Below are positions 16,083 to 54,369 of a DNA stretch of 64,000 nt, piece by piece. The notes beneath the pieces were generated by a model. That model was given only the letters and a program-made list of their open reading frames with translations. It ran no database searches and was not told the origin of the DNA. A program made the translations under genes and the position numbers. This stretch comes from Candidatus Omnitrophota bacterium (GTDB lineage Bacteria > Omnitrophota > Gorgyraeia > Gygaellales > Profunditerraquicolaceae), in contig JAQUOV010000001.1 of NCBI GenBank assembly GCA_028716965.1, positions 70,448 to 134,447 of the forward strand, written 5' to 3'. Each line of letters starts with the position of its first letter. Positions within the stretch are counted from its first letter, which is position 1.

Positions 16083-17027
16083 TTACAATAGCTGAGTTTT
16101 TTCTCTATACCATCTGATAACTTCTTTTAAACCGTCTTTGAACTTGGTGTTTGCTTTAAAACCGAATTCCTTAAGTGCCTTTTTAGTATCCACGCACCTG
16201 CGCGGCTGGCCTTCAGGCTTACTGCTATCCCAGATAACCTTCCCTTTAAAACCGGTCAGCTTAACAATCAAATCAACAAGATCTTTAATTGATATCTCAA
16301 TCCCTGTGCCCAAATTCACCGGATCGCTTTTATTATATTGCTGCGTTGCCAAAACTATGCCCCTAACAGCATCCTGGATATAAATAAACTCCCGCGTTGA
16401 GTTACCTCTACCCCATACCGTAATCTTTTTAGCACCCTTACATCGAGCGTCAATACATTTTTTAATCAGAGCGGGAATTACATGAGATGTAATAGGATCA
16501 AAATTATCTCCCGGACCATAAAGGTTTGCTAAAATAAGATTAATAGAATTAAAACCATATTGTTGACGATATGACTGTGATTGAACTAAAAGCATTTTCT
16601 TGGCTAAGCCGTAAGGGGCATTAGTTTCATCGGGATAACCATTCCAAATATCTTCTTCTTTAAAAGGAACAGGCACAAATTTTGGATAGCTGCAGATTGT
16701 GCCGATAGTTACAAATTTCTCGATGCCTTTTTGCCTGCCTATTTCCATTAGCTGCGCTCCCATCAGGAGATTGTCGTAGAAAAATTTCCCGGGGTTATCC
16801 CTGTTTGCGCCGATGCCGCCGACTTTAGCTGCCAGGTGGATAACAATATCCGGTTTTGCATCGTCATAAACCTTCTTTACAAACTCCATTTGCACCAGGT
16901 CATAATCCTTGCTGCGCGGGACAAATATTTCTCTACAACCGATTTTTCTAAGGTACTGCACAAGAAACGTCCCCAGAAAACCATTGCCTCCGGGTATCAG
17001 GATAGATTTGTTCTTTAAATTAATCAT
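16083..17027 (-). CDS. fcl: GDP-L-fucose synthase (GDP-4-keto-6-deoxy-D-mannose 3,5-epimerase/4-reductase)
   Basis: [11 protein letters not shown] Rossmann motif. [55 protein letters not shown] closely mirrors the Fcl catalytic block (YxxxK, NLYGP.DNF...SHV.PAL). Confidence 0.85.
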
Positions 17028-17838
17028 CGCTGGCCAGTATACCTTTCATTGCTTTATTATTGATGTTTTTTCTCTCTTTATCAAAAAACCATCCCCATTT
17101 ATTAAAATATTTAATCCCTGAGCAGACAAGGTGTTTAAAAACTACCGGATCTTTATTGGAGCTTCTTTCATACTTGTGGTAAATCCAGGCTTGCGGATAA
17201 TATACTGTCCTATATAATTCATGTATCCTTCTGGTTAAATCAAGGTCCTCAAAATGGATAAAAAACCTTTCATCAAATAAACCTACCTGCCGGAATATAT
17301 TGCTTCTGATAAACATGAAGCAGCCTGATAAGTATGGCACATCCGTTACCCCGGAAAAACCTGCGCAGTTAAGCCTCTTGCGGCTTAACAACCTGTTTAA
17401 TGGCCGGATATTGGCTTTCCTGAAAAACATATCGCAGGGATTTGGCAAGAGCTTACAGAGATCCTGCAAAGAGCCGTCCGGGTATAAAACTTTCGGCATG
17501 GCAAGTCCGACAGCCGGGTTTTGTTCCATAAAATCAAAAAGCCGCTCAAGCGTCCCCCCTTCAAAATAAACATCCGGGTTCAAGATTAAAGAATACCTGC
17601 TTTTTCCGGATGCCTTGCGTATGGCGATATTGTGCCCGGCGCCAAAACCCAGATTATTATTATTAAAGATATATTCTACATTTTTAGAAACGCAAACATC
17701 CCTCAAATCATCCGCAGGAGAGTTGTCTATTATGTAAAGATATGTATTTAACCGGCTATTAAGAAAACTGACAATTGCTTTTTTTATATCATCTTTGCTA
17801 TTTTTAAATGTTACTATTGAACCTACGATATCATACAT
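17020..17838 (-). CDS. Family 2-like glycosyltransferase
   Basis: N-terminal GT-A-like beta-alpha-beta with [11 protein letters not shown] and later acidic motifs. Less canonical than the other GT2s. Confidence 0.55.
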
Positions 17839-17876
17839 CGCTAAACTCCTCGCATATCTTTATCTTAAGCTTATAT

Positions 17877-18980
17877 CTAGTTTGCCGATAATAATATATC
17901 AAACAGCCCTTTCCAATCCCGCGAAAAAGGCTCGGCAATTATTTCAGGATTTATATTTTCAAAAACAGCTACCCCATCCATCACTATTTTCATCACATCA
18001 GCCAATTGCTCATGGTTATCGGTATTAAAAAACTTGGCCTTGCCATAAGCGCCTAAAGTCTCGTGGGCATAAGGCAGGTCCGCAAGCAGTAACGGTTTAT
18101 CGTATTTTTTAAACTCGGTAATCGGTAATCCCCAGGTTTCTAACTTTGAGGGGAAAATCAGGCAATCTGCGGTATCATAAAGATTAATGATATCCTCCCT
18201 TCTCTGCAGGCCCAGGAAAATAATATTCTTCATATTCCCGAAAGAATTATAAATGCCCCTGGAATACCAGTTTTCTTTTCCGGAAATTGTAAATATGACC
18301 TTAAAATTAGTGACTCCCCGTTTCAACAGCGCCTGCGCAGCCTTGCAGATAACTTCAAAGTTTTTAAAAACCCTGGGAAAGGCCGGATAAAGGAAGGTAA
18401 AATCTCCTTCGCGCCTTATAATGCCCCCCTGTCTCTTTGAGAAATTTCCATCATGGACTTTCGGGTGGGCAACGATTACGTTCTTAAGCCCGAACAGCTT
18501 CCTGAATTCCCGCCTTAACCAATCTTGTTGCACAATCACGAAATCAGCCTTGCGGATATTTATCATATAGAGGTATTTATAAAACAGGTTAAACAAGGCA
18601 AATCTCGGATCCTTTATAGCCTGTCCGAACGATAAATCATAAAAAGGCGAGGCGTTGTGGCAATAAACCGCCAAACGTTGCGCTTTAACATTCGAAGTAA
18701 TGTCGTGAAGGGACAACCAAAGAAAAGGATTGAGCCGTTTCGACAACTTGTTAAAAAAAATGTATTCATAGTATAAACGGTTAAGCCATGATTTCTTTGA
18801 TTGCGGGAATTCCAAATATTCCATATTCCCACAGCTAAACAGCCCTTTTCTGTTTACGAGCGCAATTATCTCGTATTTATCCGATAAGTCTTCCGATAAA
18901 TACTCCAGGCATTCCTGCAATACGGTTAAAGGCCCTGCCTCAAGCAGGTTAATAGCGGAAACAATGATTTTTCTTCTCAT
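17877..18980 (-). CDS. GT-B fold glycosyltransferase (GT4/GT1-like)
   Basis: C-terminal CLIFPSKLETWGLPITEFKKYDKPLL matches the GT4 E-x7-E motif region. Confidence 0.6.
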   Translation of the reverse strand: MRRKIIVSAINLLEAGPLTVLQECLEYLSEDLSDKYEIIALVNRKGLFSCGNMEYLEFPQSKKSWLNRLYYEYIFFNKLSKRLNPFLWLSLHDITSNVKAQRLAVYCHNASPFYDLSFGQAIKDPRFALFNLFYKYLYMINIRKADFVIVQQDWLRREFRKLFGLKNVIVAHPKVHDGNFSKRQGGIIRREGDFTFLYPAFPRVFKNFEVICKAAQALLKRGVTNFKVIFTISGKENWYSRGIYNSFGNMKNIIFLGLQRREDIINLYDTADCLIFPSKLETWGLPITEFKKYDKPLLLADLPYAHETLGAYGKAKFFNTDNHEQLADVMKIVMDGVAVFENINPEIIAEPFSRDWKGLFDILLSAN

Positions 18981-20287
18981 GATTTCTTGGCAACCAAAAT
19001 ACCCGGCCCGGTTTTATTATGGATTTTATATGCAAAATAATAAACCCATACAAAGAAAAACAAACCATTGTAAAAATAATGGGCCTGCCGCAACAAGTAT
19101 AGGATAAATAGTATGAATATCCCGTTGCTTATTATTTGCAGCTTATGGTTATTATCCATTTTAAGCCGGAATCTAAATATAAAAAAGAAAACTATAATGA
19201 TGCCGAATATACCTGTTTCGGAAACCAACCGGAGGAAAAGCGAGCCAGAATCGCCTTTGCAAACCTCAATAGTTTGCCCAACAGGTAATGTAGGATACAA
19301 AAATCCCCTTGAAACACCTAAGTTAAAGAATTTATCATATGAAACGGGATGGCTCCCTAAACCCATGCCAAATAAAAAGTTATTTATAAAACTATTGAAA
19401 GCAATAAAAGCATTACTAACAACCGCATAAACGCTCATGTGCGTAGCATGACTTACGGATGGATGACTGAAAAATGCTATGGTACCATTAATCCTCATGC
19501 GTATATCCGGTATTAAATTATAAACAGCAAAACTTAAAACCGGAATGGTTACCGCTAAAATTAATAAATATCGTTTTTTCTTAGGGCGCGGGAACAGTAG
19601 CAGACTTATTAAAATTGCCGCATAGGCAATGATTGAAAATGTTAAAATATAACTAATTATTATCACGAAATTTGCCCACCTTGCCTTTAGGAAAAGGTTG
19701 CTTTTCTTAATGATAGCCAAGAACGAGGCAAAGAATGCCGGGGCCATGGAAATAGCAAAATGTGCCGGCTCCATAAAAATTGAATTGATTCTCAGCAACT
19801 TTGACAATGCCCCTCCCGCATGTCCACACTCCCACTTTACCAACATCGGTATCCACTTAAAATCATAACCCGCTTTAAATCCTACTAAAAAACTAAATTG
19901 CTGGAATATCCCGATAGCCGCCACTATAAACGCAATCTGCAAATAAATTTTAAACAAATTATCAATTTCGTAATTATTGATTTTAACTAGGATATAATAA
20001 GCAATCCCGGTAATTAAAATACCTGAAATCTGTTTTGCTAAAAGAAAAATAGTATTGTTGCCAAGATATACGTTAAAAAGTGATGATATGGTTAAAATAA
20101 TCAGGATAAAAATAAAGCTTAGGTTTATGCACAGGCTACGATAAAATCTAAGATACGCAACCAGAAAAAATATTATAAAAAGATAGCCGAGATTGAACTC
20201 AAACGGATAGCGAAACAAAGTAAATGCTCCACCGAAAACATTAAAAACAAGTAAATAATTAAAAACTGTGATCATGCGCGAAGGCAT
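18977..20287 (-). CDS. Polytopic membrane protein, putative oligosaccharide repeat-unit polymerase (Wzy-like)
   Basis: 436 aa with at least ten hydrophobic helices and a larger loop near the C-terminal third. No catalytic motif can be assigned. Its position between glycosyltransferases is typical for Wzy. Confidence 0.4.
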   Translation of the reverse strand: MPSRMITVFNYLLVFNVFGGAFTLFRYPFEFNLGYLFIIFFLVAYLRFYRSLCINLSFIFILIILTISSLFNVYLGNNTIFLLAKQISGILITGIAYYILVKINNYEIDNLFKIYLQIAFIVAAIGIFQQFSFLVGFKAGYDFKWIPMLVKWECGHAGGALSKLLRINSIFMEPAHFAISMAPAFFASFLAIIKKSNLFLKARWANFVIIISYILTFSIIAYAAILISLLLFPRPKKKRYLLILAVTIPVLSFAVYNLIPDIRMRINGTIAFFSHPSVSHATHMSVYAVVSNAFIAFNSFINNFLFGMGLGSHPVSYDKFFNLGVSRGFLYPTLPVGQTIEVCKGDSGSLFLRLVSETGIFGIIIVFFFIFRFRLKMDNNHKLQIISNGIFILFILYLLRQAHYFYNGLFFFVWVYYFAYKIHNKTGPGILVAKKS

Positions 20288-20289
20288 CT

Positions 20290-21330
20290 CTATATACTCC
20301 GTGTAAGAAATAGTTTCTTAATCTTATGTACCCGGGGGCTTTTAACTATCTTGCGCTTTAGATTTACCGCTATAGCCACAAGCTTTTTTTGCCTACCCAG
20401 GGAATAGCAGGATTGCGCCATTCTTCGGCTATAACCAAATTTAAGCAATTTAGCGCTAAAATCCCTCCATAATTCCGGGCTGCCAATAAATGATGCCGCA
20501 TGGATTATCGTGTACCACGGATGCTCGCGTGTCATAACTTTCAAAAAAGCCTTTCTTACCTTGAGGTCATCCGATAAATACTTATTTGCCAGCCGCAAAT
20601 AGCCGTTAAAATCCAAAAGGAACCTGTCGACCAGCCCTCCGTCATCCTGAAAGCTTACGTTATCATTACGCCACAAAACAAGCGGGCTTTTAATATACTT
20701 CAGCCTGCATTTATGCCTAACAAAAGATAAAATCACCGAAGCAGAAGCATAAGCCGTCCCTTCAAAATCATGGCTATACCCTGCTTTATTCCATTCCCGC
20801 CGGCTTAGGATAACCGAACTCCAGAAACTAAAAAGCGCTCCGATTGAACTGGCCCTTTCGCAATACTCAATAAGCTCATCCTTCTTGTGAAGGTTAAAAA
20901 CCCTGTCATTAACTTTAGCAGAAAGCCAAAACCGGTCTCTGATTGGCTTCATATCCAGATTGCAGGCTGTTACGTTGCAAAGGTATATTTCATACCCGGA
21001 ATCAATCTCTTTTAACATTCGCTCAATTGAGCCAGGCTTTAAAGCATCATCGTCCGAAAACAACCAGCAGTATTCTCCGCGCGCTGCGGCAATAGCTTTT
21101 GCCATATCTCTGTCCACTCCGCCGTTTTCCTCCTGGCGACAGTAAATTAAATTCCTGAATTTCTTCCGATAACCAAGCACCACCTCCTGCGTGTTATCGC
21201 AAGAGGCACCGTCAACAACTACAATCTCTATACTATTATCAGCCTGAGAAATAATACTCTCAATGGCCGTACCGATAAAATTGGCGCGGTTACGCGTAGG
21301 TATACATATAGATATTCTTATATTATCCAA
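20290..21330 (-). CDS. Family 2 glycosyltransferase
   Basis: ISICIPTRNRANFIGTAIESIISQ, IEIVVVDGASCDNT and FSDDD. Confidence 0.85.
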   Translation of the reverse strand: MDNIRISICIPTRNRANFIGTAIESIISQADNSIEIVVVDGASCDNTQEVVLGYRKKFRNLIYCRQEENGGVDRDMAKAIAAARGEYCWLFSDDDALKPGSIERMLKEIDSGYEIYLCNVTACNLDMKPIRDRFWLSAKVNDRVFNLHKKDELIEYCERASSIGALFSFWSSVILSRREWNKAGYSHDFEGTAYASASVILSFVRHKCRLKYIKSPLVLWRNDNVSFQDDGGLVDRFLLDFNGYLRLANKYLSDDLKVRKAFLKVMTREHPWYTIIHAASFIGSPELWRDFSAKLLKFGYSRRMAQSCYSLGRQKKLVAIAVNLKRKIVKSPRVHKIKKLFLTRSI

Positions 21331-22306
21331 CTCTCTCCCTTTCTAAATCAGCTTCAACCATAAGTTTAACCAGTTTTTTAAACTTAATCTTTGGGCTAAA
21401 CCCGAATGTTTTTCTGGCTTTTGTTATATCCCCAACCAATGAAGATGTCTTGCTCGGGCGGATTAATTTAGGATCAATAACCAGGTATTTATCCGGCTTA
21501 AGATTTAAAACGGAAAAAGCCTCCTCCACCCATTCCTTGACGGAATGCGACTGTCCCGTAGCGATAACAAAATCATCCGCTTTATCTAATTGCATAATCT
21601 GCCATGCCGCCTCCATAAACTCTTTGGAATAACCCCAATCAATACGCGCGCTTAAATCCCCTAAAACTAATTTCTTTTGCTTGCCTAGATATATACGTGC
21701 CACAGCTTGAGTAATTTTACGCGTTACATATTCGGGAGTCCTGCGGGGGGATTCATGGTTATATAGTATGGCACCTGATGCAAATAAACCAAAGGCCTGG
21801 CGATAATACCGCGTAAGATAATAAGCAAAGACTTTGGCGCAGGCATACGGGCTTTGGGGGTTAAAAAAGGTAGATTCATTTTGTTTGGCAGTAGGCGTTA
21901 AGCCAAACATATTGGACGTACAAGGTTGAAAATAACGTATCTTATGGTTAACCTGCCGGATAATCTCTAAAATACGGCCTACTGCTGCGCCGGTGATATC
22001 CGCAGAGTAACCCACCATATCATAGCTCCAACTTACATGGTCCTGGTCAGCTTCATTATAAATCTCCTGGGGCCTTACGGAATTGATAATCCTAAAAATG
22101 GAGGTCGCATCAGCAAGGTCGCCGCGGTGCAAGAAAAAATTATGATTAAAAATCTCTCTATTTTGAATCAGATGTTCAATATTGCGCGTGTTACCGGTTG
22201 CAGAGCGGCGGAGCATTCCGTGCACCTGATACCCCTTTTCAAGCAAGACCTCTGCCAAATAACTGCCGTCTTGTCCGGTTACTCCTAAAATCAATGCTTT
22301 TTTCAT
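21323..22306 (-). CDS. gmd: GDP-mannose 4,6-dehydratase
   Basis: MKKALILGVTGQDGSYLAEVLLEKGYQVHGMLRRSA...NTRNIEHL is near-identical in pattern to Gmd N-termini. The YxxxK region is present. Confidence 0.9.
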   Translation of the reverse strand: MKKALILGVTGQDGSYLAEVLLEKGYQVHGMLRRSATGNTRNIEHLIQNREIFNHNFFLHRGDLADATSIFRIINSVRPQEIYNEADQDHVSWSYDMVGYSADITGAAVGRILEIIRQVNHKIRYFQPCTSNMFGLTPTAKQNESTFFNPQSPYACAKVFAYYLTRYYRQAFGLFASGAILYNHESPRRTPEYVTRKITQAVARIYLGKQKKLVLGDLSARIDWGYSKEFMEAAWQIMQLDKADDFVIATGQSHSVKEWVEEAFSVLNLKPDKYLVIDPKLIRPSKTSSLVGDITKARKTFGFSPKIKFKKLVKLMVEADLERERVG

Positions 22307-22321
22307 AATTTATCCTCTTTC

Positions 22322-22750
22322 TTATTTAACAAAACCCCTGATCTTAAAATCCCCGGGGAGTTTCTTTGAGAACTTAAACTTTGAACTTTGATTATCCAGT
22401 TTTACCGGATCCAGCCCGTCTATAACAGCAGTAAACACAACGCTGACAGTATGATATTTAAAATTCAAGCCAAAAGGGTTGGCCCCGTTAATCAGTTCAT
22501 AATAACCGATAGGCCGGATATCCTTAATTCTTTGTCCGGTTTCTTCTTTTACTTTACGCGCTACTGCCTGCTCTAATGACTCGCCCTTAAGCAACCGGCC
22601 TCCGATCACCCACCAATGGCCTTTTTTAGGCTGATTAGCGCGTTTGACTAAAAGGTACTCACCCTTATTATTTTGTACGGCTATATCAACACAAAGAATA
22701 GGCAGATTTTCCAGGATTTTTCTATATTGCTCTCTTGGTATTAAACTCAT
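22322..22750 (-). CDS. gmm: GDP-mannose mannosyl hydrolase (Nudix; Gmm/NudD/WcaH-like)
   Basis: Nudix box GGRLLKGESLEQAVARKVKEETG. The upstream block LPILCVDIAVQNNKGEYLLVKRANQPKKGHWWVIGGR parallels E. coli WcaH. Start trimmed to the ATG at 22750, which forms an ATGA overlap with the upstream stop; the track's longer 161-aa form overlaps the upstream gene by 61 nt. Confidence 0.8.
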   Translation of the reverse strand: MSLIPREQYRKILENLPILCVDIAVQNNKGEYLLVKRANQPKKGHWWVIGGRLLKGESLEQAVARKVKEETGQRIKDIRPIGYYELINGANPFGLNFKYHTVSVVFTAVIDGLDPVKLDNQSSKFKFSKKLPGDFKIRGFVK

Positions 22751-23955
22751 GGAACTACCCTGAATTCCGGCAAGGGCACTATAAACTTGCCGCCTGCCTT
22801 GCGCCATTCTTTTTCCCGCTGATAGAACTCATCAAAAAAAGCCCACGGCAATACCAGAAAATAATCGGGCTTGGCCTTACGCGCATCCTCTTCGGAAACA
22901 ATAGGAATCCATGAGCCGATGGTATATTTACCCCATTTTTCCGGGCTTCTTTCGGCGGCAGCGCTAATCAGCGTATTATCCAGGCCATAATATTGCAAAA
23001 TCACGTTGCCTTTGGTAGAGGCTCCGTAAACATAAACCTTTTTCCCCTTGGCCACCTCTGCTTTGATAAAATCTACGCAACGCCTGCGGTTATCCTCAAT
23101 CCGCCTGGCAAACTGCAATAAATCGCTACGGGTGAATTTTTCTTTAAATTTTATTCCCGTGCCTTTATAATGCCGGGCAAAGATACGGTAACTGCCTCCG
23201 TTAACATCATTTTCTTCAATACGGAACATCTCAAGGCCGTTAGTTTCAAACAAATATTTTAATGAATCAAGCGAATAATATTCCAAGTGCTCATGGCAGA
23301 TATTGCCCAGATCATTCTTTTCTAGCATAGGAGCCAGGCACATCAGTTGAGCCACAAATACCCCGTCTTCAGTTAAGGCCATCCGGGCATCTTTAATAAA
23401 TTGATTCGGGTCCTCTAAATCATAAAACATCCCGATAGCGGTGATAACTTTGGCTTTACCGAATCCCCACTTCTTCGCCAACTCCATATAGCGGCTGTAA
23501 TTCCAGAAATCATGCATTACATAGGAAGTGTTTTCTTCAAGCATCGGGATAAGGTTATCCGCCGGCTCGCAACCTACTTTGCGGATGCCTTTGGCGGTAT
23601 AAGCAGCAAGCATCGTCCCGTCATTGGCTCCGATATCCAATACCACATCGCCCGGCTTTAACCGGACAATAGATTCTACCTGCGCGGTTATATCCCTTAA
23701 CGCCAGGCGCATTGTATCAGTTACTCCTGACCTGTACCAGTAATGACGGGAATATAACAGCTCCTGGGGAGCGCTATGACGCAACTGCAATAAATTGCAT
23801 TTTGCGCAGATCACCAGGTCAAGAGGAGCCTTCAAACCTTTCCCGACCATCTCTTTAGGCACAAAATCATTGACGTACTGCTCGCCTAAAGAAAACACAT
23901 CTTCAAGTTTTTGCGATCCGCACAACCGGCAGCTTGTTCGGGTAATTGTCTCCAT
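22747..23955 (-). CDS. NDP-sugar C-methyltransferase-like SAM-dependent methyltransferase (TylCIII/NovU-type architecture)
   Basis: N-terminal Cys pairs (CRLCGS...CAKC), a putative zinc-binding domain, then motif I VVLDIGANDGTMLAAY, then a C-terminal extension. This three-part layout is characteristic of sugar 3-C-methyltransferases. Confidence 0.55.
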   Translation of the reverse strand: METITRTSCRLCGSQKLEDVFSLGEQYVNDFVPKEMVGKGLKAPLDLVICAKCNLLQLRHSAPQELLYSRHYWYRSGVTDTMRLALRDITAQVESIVRLKPGDVVLDIGANDGTMLAAYTAKGIRKVGCEPADNLIPMLEENTSYVMHDFWNYSRYMELAKKWGFGKAKVITAIGMFYDLEDPNQFIKDARMALTEDGVFVAQLMCLAPMLEKNDLGNICHEHLEYYSLDSLKYLFETNGLEMFRIEENDVNGGSYRIFARHYKGTGIKFKEKFTRSDLLQFARRIEDNRRRCVDFIKAEVAKGKKVYVYGASTKGNVILQYYGLDNTLISAAAERSPEKWGKYTIGSWIPIVSEEDARKAKPDYFLVLPWAFFDEFYQREKEWRKAGGKFIVPLPEFRVVP

Positions 23956-23956
23956 A

Positions 23957-25075
23957 CTAATTCACCTTTTGTTTTAAGATTAATTCTAAAGCGCTAATAA
24001 CCTGATCAATCTCTTTTTCAGTCAGGGCAAGGCCGGAAGGCAAATACAGCCCCTGGCGGCTGATACGCTCAGTAACCGGATACCTTTCTTTCTTAAACAA
24101 ACCAAGTTTGTGTAAGGCCGGCTGTTGATGCAAACCGATAAAAAACGGCCGCGTAGCAATCCCCTTTTTAGCCAGGCCGTCCATAACATCCTTTGCCTTT
24201 AAACCAAAACCCTTGCCCAGCTCAATACAATACATCCAATAAACCATTTTTGCCCAGGATTTCTCTGTCTGGGTTTTTATGCCATTAAACTTGAGCAGGC
24301 TCTTACGGTAGTATTCCCCTAACCTGCGCTTAATTTGAATAAATTCATCAATACGCTCCATCTGGGCTATTCCCACGGCTGCCTGTAAATTAGTCAGGCG
24401 GAAATTATAGCCTAACTCCGTATGGTAAAATCTTTTCTCCGGCCGGAAACAGAGATTGCGGTAAGACTCTGCGCGCTTGGCCATCTTTGAATCAGAGGTA
24501 AGCACCATTCCGCCCTCGCCAGTCGTAATTATCTTATTAGCATAGAATGACCATGCGCTGATATGCCCTAACGCTCCGCATTTACGGCCTTTATACTCTG
24601 CGCCATGGGCTTCCGCAGCATCTTCAACCACAACAAGATTGCGTTTTTTGGCTATATCTAAAAGCGGATCCATATCTACCGGATGGCCGTAAATATGCAC
24701 CGGCATAATTGCCTTGGTTTTGGGCGTCAGACGGCTTTCAATCTGGCTTACATCCATATTCCAAGTCTCAGCTTCTGCATCTACTAATACCGGTATTGCG
24801 CCAAGCCGGATAGCTGCCAAAGCGCAGGAGATGATCGTAAAAGCCGGCATAATTACCTCATCCCCCTTACCTATGCCTGCGGCAAACAAGGCTGTTTCCA
24901 GGGCTGCGGTGCCGTTACAAACCGTAACCCCATGCTTTGTCCCTATATAATCGCTGAATTTACGCTCAAACTCGGCGACAAACGGCCCATCGGAAGAGAT
25001 CCAGCCGCTCTCGATGCACTGAGCGAGTAATTCTTTTTCGCGTCTGCCGATTATCGGCTGATTAACCGGTATCAT
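23957..25075 (-). CDS. PLP-dependent sugar aminotransferase (DegT/DnrJ/EryC1/StrS family; perosamine-synthase-like)
   Basis: PVNQPIIGRREKELLAQCIESGWISSDGPFVAEFERKFSDYIG and the later ISAWSFYANKIITTGEGG (Lys region) are typical of DegT-family enzymes. Confidence 0.85.
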   Translation of the reverse strand: MIPVNQPIIGRREKELLAQCIESGWISSDGPFVAEFERKFSDYIGTKHGVTVCNGTAALETALFAAGIGKGDEVIMPAFTIISCALAAIRLGAIPVLVDAEAETWNMDVSQIESRLTPKTKAIMPVHIYGHPVDMDPLLDIAKKRNLVVVEDAAEAHGAEYKGRKCGALGHISAWSFYANKIITTGEGGMVLTSDSKMAKRAESYRNLCFRPEKRFYHTELGYNFRLTNLQAAVGIAQMERIDEFIQIKRRLGEYYRKSLLKFNGIKTQTEKSWAKMVYWMYCIELGKGFGLKAKDVMDGLAKKGIATRPFFIGLHQQPALHKLGLFKKERYPVTERISRQGLYLPSGLALTEKEIDQVISALELILKQKVN

Positions 25076-25488
25076 TTAACCCTCACCTTAGGCGTGAAAT
25101 TCACCTTATCCACTCCCTGAAGATATGGCCCGTTTTTGATTTCAAAAATAACAGCTTTCGTAATAAATTTAAAAGCATGGCCTGCGCCGGCAATAAAAAT
25201 TATATCCCCGGCATTTAGCTTGCGGCTTCTTAAGAAGACCCTTTTTAGGGAGTAGAAGTCAATGCGCACCTGCCCGCTTTTAATAACTAAAACTTCTTGA
25301 GCGTGCGTAGTAACGCGCTTAATCGGCTTATGCATATGCGGCATAATCTGATAACCTTTAGGCCGGGACATTGCCCCAAGCTGCAAAGGGTAATCATTGA
25401 GTGAGAAGAAATTTAACGCTTCCGGTTTATAACCCTTGCGGATAATCAAGGCGATAATATTGCCGTTGTGCGTAATTTTCTCAATCAT
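25072..25488 (-). CDS. Cupin-fold NDP-4-keto-6-deoxyhexose 3,4-ketoisomerase-like protein (FdtA/QdtA/WxcM-like)
   Basis: 138 aa. MPHMHKPIKRVTTHAQEVLVIKSGQVRIDFY has the His pair of cupin sugar isomerases. It is translationally coupled (4-nt overlap) to the aminotransferase. Confidence 0.5.
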   Translation of the reverse strand: MIEKITHNGNIIALIIRKGYKPEALNFFSLNDYPLQLGAMSRPKGYQIMPHMHKPIKRVTTHAQEVLVIKSGQVRIDFYSLKRVFLRSRKLNAGDIIFIAGAGHAFKFITKAVIFEIKNGPYLQGVDKVNFTPKVRVK

Positions 25489-26369
25489 AGCTCCTCCTTT
25501 ACGAACCTGCTTATCCCGCTAAACATCCCTTTTAATACATAAGCATAGTGGCATCTTTTGTCCTTCTGTTCATACTTGCCTTTTAGAATCAATTTCTGCA
25601 ATAACCTTATAAAGGCCTTGCTGGCTAATTTCAAGGCGATAAAAAAATACACAAGGAAATGCCATTTATCATTAATGCTATTTTTTGTCAGGCATGCTGC
25701 TATAGCGCATGAATAATTATATACATATTTCGGAGGCGCAATTGGTATAGGGTGGTAAAAAATCAAATCCGGCAGATACAACACCTGCTCATTAGCCGCC
25801 TTAAGCCTGAAGAATATGTCGGTTTCTTCGGAGCCAAAGAATTTGGAACCCGAACCAAAGCGTTCATCATAATTGCCTATCTTTTTAACCGCCTTCCTGC
25901 TTAATACGTGCGCGCTGCCCATAAAATACTGAAAATCCAACCGGCCCAATCTCTTAACGTTATTATCGCTAAAAAGGATGCTAAAGGGGATATTCTGAAC
26001 CGGATCAATCAGCCTGCCGCAAAATGCGTTAACCTCGCCGTAGAAAGAGCCCCTATTAGATAAGACGCGCAGAAAATCTTCTTTAACTTTAGCATCATCA
26101 TCAATAAATACAAGATATTCTCCAGAAGACTCCCTGATCCCGATATTTCTGGCCCCGGATAACCCCACATCCTCATATGTATGAAATTTAACTAAATGAG
26201 GATAACGGCTTTCCACGGATTTATTCATTATCCCATTGGCCTTAAAGACGACCAGGATTTCAACATCAATATCATGATTGCTATAATCATACGCCTTGCC
26301 GATAGAGGCGAGGCAATCCTTTAAATCATCATACCTGTCTACTGAAGATATAATAAATGAAAATTTCAA
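25485..26369 (-). CDS. Family 2 glycosyltransferase
   Basis: FSFIISSVDRYDDLKDCLASI and VFIDDDAKV (DXD). Confidence 0.6.
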   Translation of the reverse strand: MKFSFIISSVDRYDDLKDCLASIGKAYDYSNHDIDVEILVVFKANGIMNKSVESRYPHLVKFHTYEDVGLSGARNIGIRESSGEYLVFIDDDAKVKEDFLRVLSNRGSFYGEVNAFCGRLIDPVQNIPFSILFSDNNVKRLGRLDFQYFMGSAHVLSRKAVKKIGNYDERFGSGSKFFGSEETDIFFRLKAANEQVLYLPDLIFYHPIPIAPPKYVYNYSCAIAACLTKNSINDKWHFLVYFFIALKLASKAFIRLLQKLILKGKYEQKDKRCHYAYVLKGMFSGISRFVKEEL

Positions 26370-27287
26370 CTATGCCCCCCTGTACCAGTCAAGCGTTTCC
26401 CTGATTGCTGCTTTTAATTGGACGTCCGTAAAATCTATTTTCTTAAACCGCGAGATTTTCTTATTTTCGCCGACGCTCCACGGTATGTCGTTGGCTTTAA
26501 ATTTAGCAGGGTCAACTTCAAAGCTGATTTTCTTGCGCGCCAATTTCAACAATTGCTGCAGAACATCCCCGATCTTTACCGGACGGGATGAACAAATATT
26601 ATAAACCTCTGCGTGTTCTCCGTAAATAGCAAGCTCCTTTAAGCATTCAGCAACTGCTTTAACGGGTAATAAATCCCTGTAGCTTTCCAGATTTCCCGTT
26701 TTAATCACAGATGAGCTCACCAGGCCCTTCTCAATATCAACTACCTGCCTTGCAAAGCCACCCAGGAAAAGGCTGCTGTGCATGCCGCTTCCGATCATAT
26801 TAAACAACCTGGCGATGACAACTTGCGGCGACTTATTACTTTTAGCAAACCTCATTGCCATAAAACTCTGGCAAGCCTTGCTTATCCCGTAATCTGATAG
26901 AGGATTAAGCGCAAAATCTTCGGATATTTTCTTACCCTTTCTGGTTGCCCCGTATTCGGCAGCGCTTCCTATCAGGATAAGCTTGCAATTCAGCCCGGCC
27001 GCAGCCTCTAAAAATGCAACGGGCGCAAAACAATTTGCCGTAAAAAGCTCAACCGGAGACGGCGAATTAAAGATTCCTGCGAGGTTAAAAATAACATCCG
27101 GCCTTTCAGTTTCACACAAAGAGACCAATTTAGATGTATCCTTCAAATCTATCTGATATTCATTTTTTGCCTTTTTGTCTTCTAAGGCCAAATCTGCTTT
27201 CAGCAAGATATCGCCCTGGGAGGAGCTTAAAACTCTAGATAACGCCTTACCCAAAAATCCTTCGCTGCCTATAATCAAATATTTCAT
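26370..27287 (-). CDS. NAD(P)-dependent epimerase/dehydratase (extended SDR)
   Basis: MKYLIIGSEGFLGKALSRVL Rossmann motif and a YGISK (YxxxK) catalytic motif. Confidence 0.7.
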   Translation of the reverse strand: MKYLIIGSEGFLGKALSRVLSSSQGDILLKADLALEDKKAKNEYQIDLKDTSKLVSLCETERPDVIFNLAGIFNSPSPVELFTANCFAPVAFLEAAAGLNCKLILIGSAAEYGATRKGKKISEDFALNPLSDYGISKACQSFMAMRFAKSNKSPQVVIARLFNMIGSGMHSSLFLGGFARQVVDIEKGLVSSSVIKTGNLESYRDLLPVKAVAECLKELAIYGEHAEVYNICSSRPVKIGDVLQQLLKLARKKISFEVDPAKFKANDIPWSVGENKKISRFKKIDFTDVQLKAAIRETLDWYRGA

Positions 27288-27355
27288 CGCGCCTTTCCTC
27301 TTTCAAAAAAATTCTCAAGTTAAGAAATCTTTTCTTGAATTATCAATTCTCACTC

Positions 27356-27805
27356 TTATTTATGCACAAGTTCCCAGTTATAAGGAATCTTTTCTGAAAA
27401 AGGATCTAATCTTATAATCTCATCCGGATCATGAGGAATAGTTGCGCAATTAGCTACCATAGCCAGCTTAGTGCCTATGCCCTTAAAACCATTCCAAACT
27501 TCAGCAGGAATTTTTACTAAACAATAATTATCTTCGCCGATAAATAATTCCATAATTTCCCCTTTAGTAGGAGAATCTTTTCTATCATCGAATAGAACCA
27601 ATTTTATCATCCCGGTTATGACAGCATAATTGAGTACCATTATTTTATGCAAATGCCAGCCTTTGATTACTCCGGGATAGACTGCCGAAAAATATATCTC
27701 TCCGAATTTCTCAAAATGTTTCACATCACTTCGCAGCATATGCATTATTTTACCTCTCTCATCAGCTATCTGTTTTAAAGGTACGACCTCTACGCCTTTA
27801 ATCAT
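27356..27805 (-). CDS. Cupin-fold NDP-sugar epimerase/isomerase (RmlC/FdtA-like)
   Basis: 149 aa. GWHLHK...NGFKG and the overall size and profile match dTDP-4-dehydrorhamnose 3,5-epimerase-like / WxcM-like cupins. Confidence 0.5.
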   Translation of the reverse strand: MIKGVEVVPLKQIADERGKIMHMLRSDVKHFEKFGEIYFSAVYPGVIKGWHLHKIMVLNYAVITGMIKLVLFDDRKDSPTKGEIMELFIGEDNYCLVKIPAEVWNGFKGIGTKLAMVANCATIPHDPDEIIRLDPFSEKIPYNWELVHK

Positions 27806-27817
27806 TTTAATATCTCC

Positions 27818-28633
27818 TTATTTTATTAATCTGGTTGCGGCTTGCTTTAAAATCTGTCTGGAGCCCATGTTAATAAATTTCAAATAAAAAGAAAAATATG
27901 TGGCAATAAGTATGCCCTTGGGGACAAAAGGCGCAAATTCATCTATCACAGCCTTGGTGCACCTAAATATTTTAAAAAGTCCACCGGAGAGATTATTCCC
28001 GTGCAGCACATAAATTGCTAACGGCTCATCAATAAAACCTATTTTATGTTTTCTGGCAATAGATAGCCATAATATATAATCTTCAACGGTAATAAACCTT
28101 TTATCTTCGGGGAAAAAATATTGTTCGGAGTTTTTTTGATTCACCATCATAACTGTAAGGCATGCGATAAAATTGAGCTCAAGGTAGAGCCGGTTAAAGA
28201 CATTGCCCGCATTCGCTTTCTGAGGGGTTATTCCGGAGATCTTCCCATTTGTCTTTATAAAACATTTTGAATAAACAAGAAAATAATCATTATTATTCTC
28301 TAGGAAATCTACCCCCAGCTTAAGTTTATCCGGTAACCACAGGTCATCACTGTCTAAAAAAGCAAGGTATTTACCTAAGGCATTTCTTATGCCTATATTC
28401 CTTGGTCTTGCGGGGCCACCAGAATTATAATCAGACTCAATAAGTCGGATTCGACTATCTTGTTGGATAATCTCCTTTAGCACATCCCGGCTTCTGTCTG
28501 TTGAACGATTATCAACAACTAACATTTCCCAATTCTGGTATGTCTGCGCCTGAACAGAACGAATAGTCTCCCGTACAGTATTCTCGGCATTAAACATGGG
28601 AATAATTACTGAAACTAACGGATTATTTGCCAT
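27818..28633 (-). CDS. Family 2 glycosyltransferase
   Basis: VSVIIPMFNAENTVRETIRSVQAQTY, WEMLVVDNRSTDRS and LDSDD. Start trimmed to the ATG at 28633 (MANNPLVSVIIP); the longer track ORF would overlap the upstream SDR gene by 134 nt. Confidence 0.85.
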   Translation of the reverse strand: MANNPLVSVIIPMFNAENTVRETIRSVQAQTYQNWEMLVVDNRSTDRSRDVLKEIIQQDSRIRLIESDYNSGGPARPRNIGIRNALGKYLAFLDSDDLWLPDKLKLGVDFLENNNDYFLVYSKCFIKTNGKISGITPQKANAGNVFNRLYLELNFIACLTVMMVNQKNSEQYFFPEDKRFITVEDYILWLSIARKHKIGFIDEPLAIYVLHGNNLSGGLFKIFRCTKAVIDEFAPFVPKGILIATYFSFYLKFINMGSRQILKQAATRLIK

Positions 28634-29597
28634 TTTTAAAGTATTTTTTGCAGAATCGCAAAGTAGCATCAATTTCTTCGTTAAAATTGGATAGCAGGGA
28701 AAAACCGGTTGCCTTAAGCTTGTCTGACCGATAATCAAGCTTCTGCATAACTTCATTCTTCTGTGCTTGTTGCCGCTTAATAGGAGGAATAAAACCTAAA
28801 ATCTCTTTACACCTCCCAGCAATAATCTCTGCTAATTCAAAAACAGAGGTTGATTTTGCTTCCCCCACATTAAATATCCCATTACTGCATTTGTCCATAG
28901 GAATAAACAATGTATATTCTATGGCTCTAATTATATCTGTCAAAGTAATAAAATTTCTACTTTGTAGGCCTGACGAATTTAGAATAAGCTTTTGCGTAGT
29001 CACTGCTTGCCTGCACAAATCGTTTACAATGAGTTTCCACCGGTTAATAAAAGGATCCGCCGGAACACCAAATCCATTTGCAGGCCTTAAGATAATTCCA
29101 GGTAGTTTTCTTTCAAAGCCCGCGGCAACAACAAAATCTTCGGCAGCCCGGTGCGTAACTGCATAGGCGTGGCGCGGGCAAGGAACAGTTTCTTCCGTAA
29201 TTGTCCCAGAAAGCGGCGCTCCGTAAACATGTATAGTTGATAAATAGATAATCCGTTTTACCCCGGCATTCTGGGCGGCTTCAATGAGATTAAGAGTGCC
29301 AAGGGTGTTTATCAAGAAAGCCTTTTGCGGATCAGCAAAACTATCAACCTCATTTAAAGAAGCAAGATGAATTACAAAATCAACCCCCTTGCAGGCTGAA
29401 TTTAAAGTTTTCTTAGATGAAACATCTATTTTTACCACATCAAGGCTATTATCTCTGACCCAGCGCGGATAGCTCCTATCATCAGTGCTATGCGCTCCTA
29501 ATCTTAAGGAATAATCCGGATTCTTAGAAAATGCAAGCGCGGCCCTTCCGCCTAAATAGCCTAATCCACCGGTAATTAAAATTATTTTTTTTGCCAT
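28623..29597 (-). CDS. NAD-dependent epimerase/dehydratase (extended SDR)
   Basis: KIILITGGLGYLGGRAAL Rossmann motif and a YAVTHRAAE (YxxxR/K) region. Confidence 0.75.
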   Translation of the reverse strand: MAKKIILITGGLGYLGGRAALAFSKNPDYSLRLGAHSTDDRSYPRWVRDNSLDVVKIDVSSKKTLNSACKGVDFVIHLASLNEVDSFADPQKAFLINTLGTLNLIEAAQNAGVKRIIYLSTIHVYGAPLSGTITEETVPCPRHAYAVTHRAAEDFVVAAGFERKLPGIILRPANGFGVPADPFINRWKLIVNDLCRQAVTTQKLILNSSGLQSRNFITLTDIIRAIEYTLFIPMDKCSNGIFNVGEAKSTSVFELAEIIAGRCKEILGFIPPIKRQQAQKNEVMQKLDYRSDKLKATGFSLLSNFNEEIDATLRFCKKYFKNGK

Positions 29598-29603
29598 CTA
29601 CCT

Positions 29604-31130
29604 TTAGATAAAAACCCTTTCGGTATATCTTTCTAATAAATCAGATTTCAACCTATCGTTTAGGACATAATGAAAAGGAGACTTGGTTATTCTTGGTATG
29701 CTCGATATATCCCCTACCAGTTCCCGTATCTTGGGATCAGAATTGTAAATCTCATATGCTTCAGGATCAAGGCCCCCGTAAGTATTAAATGTGATATTAA
29801 AAAACAGCTGGAGCCGATTGAGAAGCTCAATCTTCTTTTCATCAATCCACGGCCGGAATTTAAGGTCAAGGTCTCCATACATGTCAGTTTTACTCCATTC
29901 TTCAAATCGGTCCGGAAATACCAGGCCATACTTTGAAATCATTATATCCGTAAGCGGCGCTCCGGGATAAGGCATATATTGATAAATAGCCATTCTAGAG
30001 GCCGGATTTATATTTTTAAAATCTTTGCATAAATTAACTGTTGCGCGAATATCTTCATCAGTCTCAAAAGGAAATCCCAAAATAAATGTATGCACCGTGG
30101 CTATTCCCATATCATAAAGGCGCTTATTCAATAATTTCATCTTTTCATAACTGGCTCTTTTATTTAATATAGCCTGAATTTTAGGGGAGCCAGTTTCCGG
30201 AGAATAAGCAACATAATCACAGAATCCGGGCAACTCTTTTATTACCCTGTCATGATAAGTATTAAAGTTGCTGCGGATTGCCGATATTTTGTAGCCTTTA
30301 CTCTTAAAAATACGTATAATCTCTACCGCCCTATCCACATCAAGTATGAAATTTTCATCAGACATCTCAAAAACGTCAAAACCGAAATTACGATTCAAAT
30401 AATCAGCTTCCTCCACAACCCGCTCAACATTAAAAGGCCTCCATGGCTTGGCTACACCAATATCGATTCCCCCTTTATAACAGTAAGTACAATTAAACGG
30501 ACAACCGCGTGAAGTAGTAAGTGTAGCAAGAATGGGATATTGCGCAGGATTTAAGTGTTCTGCAAAATGATGCCAAGCCGGCATAGGCAAGACGTTTAGC
30601 GAATCAAGCTGTGCATGCGCGGGCGTCTTTACAATCTTGTCGTTATTTTTAAAATACAGACCGTGGACACTATCCAGCGGCTTATTCCCGGCAATCGCTT
30701 TAGCTAATTCTACCACCGTATAGTCAGCCTCCCCGTAAACAATAATATCCACAAGCGGATGCAGTATCGTTTTTTCCGGGAAAATTGTAGGATGCACTCC
30801 GCCCCATACCAAAGGTACATCCTTATCGTATTTGGAGCGCAACCTATTAGCGATATCAAGGCCGTCCATAATCTGTGACCCGGTCATCGTCGAAATGCCT
30901 ATAAAAAGTATTTCGTCCAGGTCAGATATTTTTTTAAGCAATTCGTCGGTCGTATTTAACCTATGGTCGAGCAGGAGCACAGGAAAACCCGCAGATTCAA
31001 GCGTGGCAGCTAAGACCATAATTGAAAGTGCCGGATAAAGCCTTTTTACTTGATGAGTATCACGCCTGCGTTCTTTAGCATAACCCTGCGTCGGCCGCGG
31101 GTATATCAGTACGATATGTTTATTTTTCAT
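29604..31130 (-). CDS. B12-binding radical SAM enzyme (class B)
   Basis: N-terminal cobalamin-binding-like domain (HIVLIYPRP...) and a radical SAM cluster TSRGCPFNCTYCYKG. Confidence 0.8.
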   Translation of the reverse strand: MKNKHIVLIYPRPTQGYAKERRRDTHQVKRLYPALSIMVLAATLESAGFPVLLLDHRLNTTDELLKKISDLDEILFIGISTMTGSQIMDGLDIANRLRSKYDKDVPLVWGGVHPTIFPEKTILHPLVDIIVYGEADYTVVELAKAIAGNKPLDSVHGLYFKNNDKIVKTPAHAQLDSLNVLPMPAWHHFAEHLNPAQYPILATLTTSRGCPFNCTYCYKGGIDIGVAKPWRPFNVERVVEEADYLNRNFGFDVFEMSDENFILDVDRAVEIIRIFKSKGYKISAIRSNFNTYHDRVIKELPGFCDYVAYSPETGSPKIQAILNKRASYEKMKLLNKRLYDMGIATVHTFILGFPFETDEDIRATVNLCKDFKNINPASRMAIYQYMPYPGAPLTDIMISKYGLVFPDRFEEWSKTDMYGDLDLKFRPWIDEKKIELLNRLQLFFNITFNTYGGLDPEAYEIYNSDPKIRELVGDISSIPRITKSPFHYVLNDRLKSDLLERYTERVFI

Positions 31131-31927: not shown

Positions 31928-31940
31928 TTTTACCCCTCTA

Positions 31941-32954: not shown

Positions 32955-32972
32955 GTTTACCTCTTACGAAGT

Positions 32973-42113: not shown

Positions 42114-42122
42114 CTTACCCTC

Positions 42123-42944: not shown

Positions 42945-42949
42945 TTTAT

Positions 42950-43723: not shown

Positions 43724-43724
43724 T

Positions 43725-51339: not shown

Positions 51340-51342
51340 ATC

Positions 51343-52410: not shown

Positions 52411-52425
52411 ATGACTAACCTCACG

Positions 52426-53316: not shown

Positions 53317-53336
53317 AATTTTATCCCTTTAAGACC

Positions 53337-54353: not shown

Positions 54354-54369
54354 AATATAAATTTCTCCC

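Follow-up and report, generated by a model that had tools for sequence, protein, structure and literature searches.

A Gmd paralogue without the dehydratase glutamate in a conserved cassette that probably makes branched and amino sugars on a GDP carrier

Introduction

Which nucleotide carries the sugars made by a C-methyltransferase that stands among GDP-mannose-type genes, and which enzyme handles the keto group that it needs? C-methyl-branched sugars are known almost only from the thymidine diphosphate (dTDP) pathways of antibiotic producers, while a guanosine diphosphate (GDP) route has so far existed on paper only, for virenose, a virulence sugar of Coxiella. The question is raised by a 64,000-nucleotide stretch of a Candidatus Omnitrophota genome (contig JAQUOV010000001.1, positions 70,448 to 134,447; hereafter the window), in which eight open reading frames (ORFs) at 21323-27805 had been read, in an initial annotation of this DNA, as a Gmd and a Gmm feeding a C-methyltransferase, an aminotransferase and two cupin isomerases on a GDP rather than a dTDP scaffold. 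According to our analysis, the probable output of this cassette is a methyl-branched sugar and an amino sugar, both GDP-linked. The Gmd-family protein of the cassette, here called GmdN, is by its sequence an atypical Gmd, probably acting as the C4 redox partner of the methyltransferase and not as a classical dehydratase.

The gene inventory of the initial annotation (methyltransferase, aminotransferase, cupins, short-chain dehydrogenase/reductase (SDR), Nudix hydrolase and Gmd-family gene) was borne out, and the limits of all eight ORFs were confirmed. All lie on the minus strand, with ends that overlap or nearly abut. In order of transcription they are as follows, with the gene that comes directly after them:

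27356-27805, minus strand: RmlC-like cupin, 149 amino acids; PF00908, 36 bits (cut-off 27)
26370-27287, minus strand: Rmd-like SDR (SDR305), 305 amino acids; best solved relative 2pk3, 3.1e-39
25485-26369, minus strand: family 2 glycosyltransferase (GT2), 294 amino acids, directly upstream of the orphan cupin; absent from the list in the initial annotation
25072-25488, minus strand: orphan cupin, 138 amino acids; no Pfam family
23957-25075, minus strand: DegT aminotransferase, pyridoxal phosphate (PLP)-dependent, 372 amino acids; PF01041, E 3.7e-119
22747-23955, minus strand: C-methyltransferase of the TylC3/TcaB9 type, 402 amino acids; PF08421, PF13489 and PF08484
22322-22750, minus strand: Nudix hydrolase, 142 amino acids; distantly Gmm-like
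21323-22306, minus strand: GmdN, a Gmd-family SDR, 327 amino acids; PF16363, E 4.5e-102
20290-21330, minus strand: GT2, 346 amino acids, directly downstream of GmdN with an 8-nucleotide overlap

Below, Module A denotes the GT2 at 25485-26369, the orphan cupin and the aminotransferase, and Module B the C-methyltransferase, the Nudix hydrolase, GmdN and the GT2 at 20290-21330.

Conservation of the cassette and its nucleotide carrier

To place the cassette in a wider context, we drew 66 loci from a scan of species-representative genomes and ran the window proteins against them by tblastn. Linkage was counted in the 50 loci with at least 2.5 kb of sequence downstream of the methyltransferase, and upstream genes in the 42 loci with upstream sequence. 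The loci span more than 12 phyla, including WOR-1, Omnitrophota, Planctomycetota, Chloroflexota, Ratteibacteria, Desulfobacterota, Nitrospinota, Lentisphaerota, Gemmatimonadota and Acidobacteriota; they occur also in Alpha- and Gammaproteobacteria, several lineages of the Candidate Phyla Radiation (CPR) and one Methanomicrobiales archaeon, and nearly all carriers are metagenome-assembled genomes (MAGs). In WOR-1 the cassette is also found in near-complete genomes, on contigs of 1.0 and 1.67 Mb. Cassette proteins are 57-90% identical across Omnitrophota, Planctomycetota, Chloroflexota, Desulfobacterota, Nitrospinota, CPR bacteria and methanogenic archaea, and at 78-90% identity the window methyltransferase has more than 120 matching clusters, drawn from several phyla. 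Of the 50 loci counted for linkage, 47 have a Gmd-family gene no more than 4 kb from the methyltransferase, and the identities of the two proteins to their window copies co-vary (Spearman 0.85). We read Module B as a unit spread by horizontal transfer.

The closest relatives are syntenic with window positions 17020-26369, in the order GT2, cupin, aminotransferase, methyltransferase, Nudix, GmdN, GT2, membrane protein, GT1, GT2. The GT2 downstream of GmdN keeps its place in 11-12 loci, the GT2 upstream of the cupin in about 10, and the extended module at 17020-20287 is syntenic in the 5-7 closest loci. Accessory genes around the cassette encode glycosyltransferases, O- or N-type methyltransferases, Wzy and Wzm/Wzt. 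Carriage by phages or plasmids was considered as a source of the cross-phylum spread and rejected: the best plasmid and phage matches to the methyltransferase are at most 41% identical, and those on viral contigs are at most 44% identical and have no Gmd neighbour.

Several lines of evidence bear on the nucleotide carrier. In the 64-kb window, a Pfam scan of all minus-strand ORFs of at least 110 amino acids and tblastn searches (with RmlA, RmlB, RmlC, RmlD, ManC, ManB and canonical Gmd as queries against window and loci) found no RmlA, RmlB, ManC or ManB, confirming what the initial annotation had said of RmlA and RmlB. By tblastn, the 66 loci hold no true RmlB (all matches are at most 28% identical), no ManC and no ManB, and a single weak RmlA-like match in one locus. 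Together with this near absence of dTDP-sugar entry genes, the tight linkage of methyltransferase and Gmd family, the closeness of the aminotransferase to GDP-perosamine synthase and that of SDR305 to Rmd all speak for GDP. Further pointers are the Nudix hydrolase, nearest to Gmm, and GmdN itself, with NHESPRR and other invariants of the Gmd family. Judging from these relationships, the chemistry of the cassette is almost certainly built on GDP-sugars, which supports the scaffold first proposed for it. Moreover, the synteny shared across loci answers the objection that an rmlAB pair may lie elsewhere better than a search of any single genome.

Alternatively, the methyltransferase, aminotransferase and cupins could act on dTDP- or cytidine diphosphate (CDP)-sugars supplied by rmlAB or ddhAB genes elsewhere, with the Gmd-like gene serving only a fucose or rhamnose branch. 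Every solved relative of the methyltransferase uses dTDP-sugars, its family is also paired with CDP-glucose genes in S. meliloti (PMC4053727), and a 40%-identical homologue stands beside rfbCBDA on an Azospirillum plasmid. We nevertheless consider this highly improbable given the Gmd-family linkage, the physical fusion described below, the lack of a true RmlB in any locus, the GDP-specific nearest relatives of the aminotransferase and SDR305, and an active-site signature that the methyltransferase clade has to itself.

The Azospirillum thermophilum plasmid (L067:7986-13837) carries this 40%-identical C-methyltransferase, then a 309-amino-acid SDR annotated as GDP-mannose 4,6-dehydratase, and then rfbC, rfbB, rfbD and rfbA. 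We rejected it as a cultured precedent for the methyltransferase-Gmd pair, since the supposed Gmd, beside rfbCBDA, is only 28% identical to GmdN; annotation alone would here mislead.

The C-methyltransferase

The methyltransferase shares its three domains, a zinc ribbon, a class I S-adenosylmethionine (SAM) fold and PF08484, with TylC3/EryBIII, TcaB9, KijD1 and MtmC. The N-terminal Cys4 zinc ribbon scores 49.4 bits against PF08421 (cut-off 31.3), and its C9, C12, C50 and C53 align with the cysteines of TcaB9 and MtmC. The C-terminal C-methyltransferase domain, on whose presence the initial annotation had let its reading depend, is found at 130.7 bits (PF08484, cut-off 23.5). The SAM motif is kept, and E222-H223 and Y72, which are invariant, match Glu224/His225 and Tyr76 of TcaB9. 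We take Glu224/His225 to be the catalytic pair of TcaB9, and the roles of its other residues are presumed here from mutagenesis work on that enzyme.

Two positions distinguish the window clade from TcaB9 and MtmC, which have His181 and Tyr222 where the window protein has D179 and C220. The His181 position can be read because the mutant chain 4e2w departs there from wild-type TcaB9. The Asp179/Cys220 pair is invariant in all 58 homologues that are at least 57% identical. Unlike its dTDP relatives, this clade is tied to, and sometimes fused with, a Gmd-family SDR and not to RmlA/RmlB. With dTDP-hexose C-3 methyltransferases it aligns over the full length at 25-28% identity, and by family precedent the methylated carbon is most likely C-3, with C-5 as the alternative. 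The clade with its distinct active-site signature offers a target that can be assayed.

GmdN and the catalytic glutamate

GmdN is 40-50% identical to true Gmds, which are also its top matches in the PDB (1n7g, 1.3e-92). It retains the GxxGxxG NADP motif, T130/S131, Y154xxxK158 and NHESPRR. The signature of Gmd is [ST]SE..Yx3K, in which a single glutamate is the only extra catalytic residue required for dehydration (PMC8987622). At this place GmdN reads QPC-T130-S131-N132-MFG, with Asn132 at the position of the catalytic Glu, and its sequence departs from the signature accordingly. Its score against the NCBIfam equivalog model TIGR01472 is 378.7 bits, under the cut-off of 415. The call of a Gmd thus holds for the family (PF16363) and fails for the T-S-E motif and the equivalog score.

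The substitution is a property of the whole subfamily. In 51 aligned Gmd-family copies linked to the methyltransferase, the catalytic position holds Asn in 49, His in two and Glu in none, whereas the second Gmd copies found in the same loci (n = 19) and the Gmd of Pseudomonas toyotomiensis all read QAS[ST]SE (Glu in 20 of 20). A further sixteen positions are fixed within each group yet differ between the two, with switches such as L85E, A87D and S89D (NLAAQSHV to NEADQDHV), R42N, N217D and R222I from canonical Gmd to GmdN; the NADP motif, Ser131, Tyr154, Lys158 and NHESPRR are common to both. The clusters nearest to GmdN in a search of 1.84 billion representatives have N, H or T at the Glu position and the remainder mostly E, and a motif scan of library representatives gave about 15 non-E (N, H, T or A) against 100 E. 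The public annotation of this subfamily as 'GDP-mannose 4,6-dehydratase' is probably wrong, and the loss of the dehydratase residue may mark a new activity on an old scaffold, which makes GmdN a further target for assay.

A physical link between the two enzymes is provided by a natural fusion. In one representative (P0268), a single protein of 732 amino acids, residues 9-394 form a domain that shares 57% identity with the window methyltransferase, and residues 408-717 form one that shares 60% with GmdN and has Thr in place of the catalytic Glu. Two independent groundwater metagenome contigs from different samples encode this fusion (L081:8001-10199 and L082:4946-7144). On L081 the genes after it encode, in order, a Nudix protein, a CTP_transf_like protein, an unknown product, canonical Gmd (QASSSEMFG, NLGAQSHV), a DegT aminotransferase and a GT2. 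On L082, the shorter contig, a Nudix gene again follows, and the sequence stops inside the gene at the Gmd position. The lost glutamate, the canonical Gmd present in 19 loci and the fusion together suggest that GmdN is the C4 redox partner of the methyltransferase.

The smallest version of the cassette is found in a Nitrospinia MAG (L035:53-13418), with the same layout in L033: methyltransferase, Nudix, GmdN and GT2 only, and no other sugar gene within 10 kb. This set adjoins fliK, flgD, flgE, a Maf-like (PF01973) gene and three tetratricopeptide repeat proteins, neighbours that suggest glycosylation of flagellar proteins with the branched sugar in Nitrospinota. Based on the high conservation across phyla, many uncultured organisms probably decorate their surfaces (probably flagella in the case of Nitrospinota) with an undescribed branched sugar.

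Proposed mechanism

The substrates, products, regiochemistry and order of steps that we propose here, and the role of GmdN among them, are predictions from sequence. The methyltransferase, as a SAM-dependent enzyme of the TylC3/TcaB9 type, would need a 4-keto sugar in order to methylate the adjacent carbon. With its intact GDP-sugar/NADP scaffold and Thr/Tyr/Lys redox triad, GmdN would carry out the C-4 redox steps for the methyltransferase, and could do so by two routes. In the first, it would convert GDP-mannose to a 4-keto sugar without 6-deoxygenation and then reduce the methylated product (oxidise, methylate, reduce); in the second, a canonical Gmd encoded elsewhere would help to make a methylated GDP-4-keto-6-deoxy sugar, which GmdN would then reduce. 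The product of Module B would be a GDP-linked C-methyl-branched hexose, to be transferred to a surface glycan by the neighbouring GT2.

Module A, with its perosamine-synthase-like aminotransferase, would turn a GDP-4-keto sugar into a GDP-amino-deoxyhexose, with the orphan cupin acting as an epimerase or keto-isomerase ahead of transamination. It may also aminate the methylated keto sugar, giving the 4-amino-3-C-methyl sugar that the initial annotation had in mind. The Rmd-like reductase, the RmlC-like epimerase and an Fcl-like enzyme further downstream (16083-17027) would serve other branches from GDP-4-keto-6-deoxymannose, and the RmlC-like cupin and the Rmd-like SDR might produce another GDP-6-deoxyhexose isomer, as do pairs of the WbcA/WbcB type. 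Taken as a whole, the picture of a region of GDP-sugar tailoring enzymes, composed of Module A, Module B and additions specific to the window, with GmdN as a C4 oxidoreductase, has in our judgement an even chance of being right.

With respect to GmdN alone, we lean slightly towards its being either a finishing 4-ketoreductase or a non-dehydrating C-4 oxidase/reductase that brackets the methylation, the two options taken jointly. Both explain the loss of the glutamate, the co-occurrence with canonical Gmd, the fusion and the minimal four-gene set, the last being explained especially well by the non-dehydrating option. For a non-dehydrating C4-dehydrogenase acting on a GDP-manno sugar there is a precedent in the GDP-heptose enzyme Cj1427 (PMC10680097).

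The linear scheme of the initial annotation differs in making GmdN a working GDP-mannose 4,6-dehydratase, through a relocated acid/base or as a bifunctional dehydratase/reductase. GDP-4-keto-6-deoxymannose would then be C-methylated, perhaps epimerised by a cupin, and transaminated at C-4 to GDP-4-amino-4,6-dideoxy-3-C-methylhexose, and the same pool would feed the Fcl-like and Rmd-like enzymes. A number of observations speak for such a scheme or otherwise weigh against the redox-partner role. The Fcl-like, Rmd-like and perosamine-synthase-like enzymes of the window all need GDP-4-keto-6-deoxymannose, and GmdN is the sole Gmd-family gene in the 64 kb, so that parsimony favours it as the dehydratase. 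The linear scheme explains these consumers best, and under it the cassette is self-sufficient from GDP-mannose onward. Of about 26 long loci with the aminotransferase, 16 likewise have no canonical Gmd within 10 kb, and the tendency of canonical Gmd to accompany Module A falls short of significance (Fisher p 0.22). The identity of GmdN to true Gmds and its intact triad and NHESPRR also fit a dehydratase, and dehydration could be restored if the acid/base has moved to the new invariant acidic residues near the NLAAQSHV loop (E85, D87 and D89). PMC3539893 cites bifunctional Gmds. In addition, nucleotide specificity is not readable from the sequence of the methyltransferase.

On the other hand, the only extra catalytic residue of Gmd is gone from every GmdN-type member, a canonical Gmd is present in the same locus, and often in the same gene array, in 19 loci that include CPR genomes and the fusion locus, and loci without the aminotransferase have no reductase that could finish the sugar in a linear pathway. 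We therefore regard the linear scheme as possible but rather doubtful, and the claim that a Gmd feeds all the other enzymes is not upheld by a protein that has lost the catalytic Glu, is accompanied by canonical Gmd and is found fused to the methyltransferase.

It could also be argued that GmdN is catalytically dead and serves the methyltransferase solely as a chaperone subunit or as a scaffold that binds GDP-sugars, which would fit the loss of the glutamate and the obligate pairing and fusion of the two proteins. Given that the NADP motif and the Thr/Ser, Tyr and Lys residues are invariant in more than 50 members at 60-80% identity, which argues for retained redox catalysis, we hold this to be very improbable.

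Within the redox-partner reading, we speculate on a more specific version, in which methyltransferase and GmdN form a redox-neutral machine converting GDP-mannose to a GDP-3-C-methyl-hexose without 6-deoxygenation, and the orphan cupin is an isomerase or epimerase of GDP-4-keto-6-deoxymannose. Though unlikely in so detailed a form, it would if true supply the missing route to sugars like 3-C-methyl-D-mannose, which has been reported from the O-antigen of Helicobacter pylori.

The aminotransferase and the orphan cupin

The aminotransferase is about 47% identical, end to end, to the GDP-perosamine synthase of Caulobacter (3bn1, E 3e-98). It contains the PLP-lysine motif SFYANKIITTGEGG, whose NK aligns with that of Per, and the kept lysine marks it as a transaminase and not a dehydratase of the ColD type, which has His. 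From this closest solved relative we predict C-4 transamination of GDP-4-keto-6-deoxymannose. Mycosamine-type C-3 aminotransferases are said to be similar, so that similarity does not fix the regiochemistry.

The orphan cupin has a well-defined set of invariant residues (H51-x-H53, R58, E65, D77-F78-Y79, H104, K118 and D127-K128). None of 22 family members scanned has a Pfam family, and the PDB holds no sequence match at E<0.09. A weak match to the WbuC-cupin model (29.7 bits) is under the cut-off of 42, and the WbuC literature gives no function. An AlphaFold (AF2) model, with a mean predicted confidence (pLDDT) of 84, returned generic cupin matches only in Foldseek, with TM-scores of about 0.6 for RmlC/WbcA and 0.53 for QdtA/WlaRB. 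We rejected both FdtA/QdtA and RmlC as identities for this protein after finding no discriminating match in sequence, Pfam or Foldseek searches. Of the two FdtA/RmlC-like cupins in the initial annotation, the one at 27356-27805 is indeed RmlC-like, and the one at 25072-25488 has no Pfam family and no sequence link to FdtA/QdtA. By profile search the orphan-cupin family has at least 8000 members, some of which are labelled 'mannose-6-phosphate isomerase-like' by their sources.

In 29 of 33 loci this cupin lies directly upstream of the aminotransferase, while the spacing between Modules A and B varies; of the 42 loci with upstream sequence, 31 have the aminotransferase and 32 the cupin. The orphan cupin is an obligate partner of the aminotransferase. 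The pair is also found without the C-methyltransferase in O-antigen loci of cultured Pseudomonas toyotomiensis (L070:7011-10319) and Herbaspirillum lusitanum (L071:8001-10311), where cupin and aminotransferase (52% identical to that of the window) are followed by a 254-amino-acid class I methyltransferase. The P. toyotomiensis locus also has ManC, a canonical Gmd, an Fcl-like gene and a Nudix gene, and that of H. lusitanum has a 379-amino-acid Gmd-family SDR at its edge. These cultured loci suggest that cupin and aminotransferase are an autonomous unit of GDP-mannose-derived pathways.

We know of no such cupin partner in true perosamine loci, which suggests that the orphan cupin probably alters the keto sugar before transamination. 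One possibility is a GDP-specific isomerase or epimerase acting on GDP-4-keto-6-deoxymannose at this point. No 3,4-ketoisomerase of GDP-4-keto-6-deoxymannose is known (PMC8944477). A cupin family tied to perosamine-synthase-like aminotransferases is a target for assay, and its cultured carriers could reveal what the cupin does.

The G+C content of the methyltransferase and aminotransferase genes (22747-25075) is 0.46-0.47, against a window mean of 0.39 and 0.35-0.36 in neighbour genes such as 18977-20287 and 27356-27805. This is consistent with horizontal acquisition or with strong codon constraint.

Relation to known systems

The superfamilies of the parts are already known, as is the logic of the dTDP pathways, in which a keto sugar is C-methylated and then reduced or transaminated. 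Noviose, which is dTDP-linked, is made with a cupin epimerase, a TylC3-family C-methyltransferase and a C-4 reductase, and in the dTDP-linked sibirosamine pathway C-3 methylation is followed by C-4 transamination. Both resemble the logic proposed here but start from dTDP-glucose, with entry enzymes of the RmlA/RmlB type. The GDP-perosamine pathway (Gmd with Per/RfbE, in Caulobacter, Vibrio cholerae O1 and E. coli O157) is alike in its aminotransferase, including the PLP lysine, and in having a Gmd-family neighbour; it differs in that the present aminotransferase has the orphan cupin upstream and a Gmd-like neighbour without the catalytic Glu.

Two GDP systems come closer to Module B, each likened here by description. 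In Coxiella burnetii, a route to virenose (6-deoxy-3-C-methylgulose) has been proposed with a GDP-mannose-derived 4-keto sugar, a TylC3-like C-methyltransferase and an SDR (PMC3539893; PMC13252051). That scheme has a canonical Gmd and no aminotransferase; worked out in silico only (PMC3539893), it is still called uncharacterised in PMC13252051, and it is the only published GDP-linked C-methyl scheme that we found. In Campylobacter jejuni, Cj1427, Cj1430 and Cj1428 oxidise a GDP-manno sugar at C-4 without dehydration, epimerise the adjacent carbons with a cupin and then reduce the product (PMC10680097). There the middle step is epimerisation and not C-methylation, and GmdN, which we liken to Cj1427 by its proposed chemistry, is a Gmd paralogue. 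Searches of the literature available to us found no characterised GDP-dependent C-methyltransferase and no 4-amino-3-C-methyl GDP-sugar. What is new in the present cassette is its GDP context, its breadth and conservation, a methyltransferase clade with an altered active site and a Gmd paralogue without the dehydratase residue.

Neighbouring genes and the wider island

The Nudix hydrolase starts at an ATG at 22750, which overlaps the stop of the methyltransferase gene (ATGA), and its 142 amino acids equal NCBI MDD5560590.1. Its assignment as Gmm proved weak: it scores 64.3 bits against the Gmm model NF011963, under the cut-off of 146, and its best PDB match, E. coli Gmm (1rya, 1.6e-14), covers the N-terminal two thirds only. 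We considered, and rejected, a role in releasing a free sugar for the NeuB-like synthase and cytidine monophosphate (CMP)-transferase at 31127-32954, 4 kb upstream, on the way to a new nonulosonic acid. Of about 60 loci, only 2 have NeuB alongside the cassette, and the lone locus with NeuB, CMP-transferase and aldo/keto reductase (L012) has no Nudix gene.

The best solved match of SDR305 is Rmd, the GDP-6-deoxy-D-lyxo-4-hexulose reductase (2pk3, 3.1e-39), with 6x3b at 1e-19, and SDR305 reaches the cut-off of no curated model. The RmlC-like cupin belongs to the 3ejk family; its KGWHLH aligns with the RGLH of RmlC homologues, and it carries the motif DDRKDSPTKG. Against TIGR01221 it scores 20.6 bits (cut-off 155.75), it weakly matches cupin epimerases of the Cj1430 type (8dcl, E 0.0025), and WbcA (5buv) is a weak match of both cupins. 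Neither SDR305 nor the RmlC-like cupin belongs to the conserved cassette; among the 66 loci, each has a counterpart in just one locus besides the window. They are additions local to the window, and with the small cupin paired to the aminotransferase, the view of cupins and SDR as one pathway does not hold.

The other features of the window that concern nucleotide sugars or adjoin the cassette are:

18977-20287, minus strand: membrane protein with at least nine transmembrane segments, part of the extended conserved module
17877-18980, minus strand: family 1 glycosyltransferase (GT1), part of the extended conserved module (17020-20287)
17020-17838, minus strand: GT2, part of the same module
16083-17027, minus strand: Fcl-like GDP-4-keto-6-deoxymannose epimerase/reductase, 314 amino acids; T-x-C, YxxxK and SHVIP; NF047922, 276 bits (cut-off 500)
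2743-4569: PglF-like 4,6-dehydratase, confirmed
56833-57855: PseB, above its equivalog cut-off
28623-29597 and 40279-41205: two further SDRs, for which no specific assignment was reached

In agreement with its first description as Fcl, the Fcl-like enzyme has the GDP-fucose synthase motifs (Ser/Thr-x-Cys, YxxxK and His). The PglF and PseB types reported earlier were likewise found, and they are the only 4,6-dehydratases in the window besides GmdN.

Taken together, the genes of the window make up a large glycan island, with Wzx, a Wzy_C protein and a PglC-like initiating transferase. It also holds PseB, PseC and PseI for pseudaminic acid, a second NeuB with a CMP-transferase, and several B12-dependent radical SAM enzymes. 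Of the latter, four are B12-binding (8555-10219, 29604-31130, 37459-38967 and 59765-61177), and two radical SAM/SPASM enzymes lie at 36423-37469 and 51343-52410. B12-binding radical SAM genes are frequent in the related loci too (14 loci), and the radical SAM enzymes of the island possibly introduce further C- or O-methylations of sugars.

The second NeuB-type synthase, which scores under the NeuB and PseI cut-offs, is grouped with a divergent CMP-transferase, a nitroreductase, an aldo/keto reductase and a haloacid dehalogenase (HAD) phosphatase (31127-34501 and 38983-39624). This set is separate from the clear PseB/PseC/PseI set (49098-57855), and an obvious source of its hexose precursor was not seen in the island. 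A KdsB-type cytidylyltransferase, over its subfamily cut-off, adjoins a 2-hydroxyacid dehydrogenase, a class I methyltransferase and an HpcH/HpaI aldolase (41202-45478), genes that could form a route to an unusual ulosonic acid.

Seven sizeable ORFs of the island have no Pfam match at E<1e-5 (34594-36426, 47343-49097, 57803-59752, 61177-62412, 53337-54353, 42123-42944 and 13111-13728). A HisH-like glutamine amidotransferase is paired with a HisF-like cyclase at the island's upstream end (62422-63958), presumably akin to the pairs that we associate with acetamidino modification of amino sugars.

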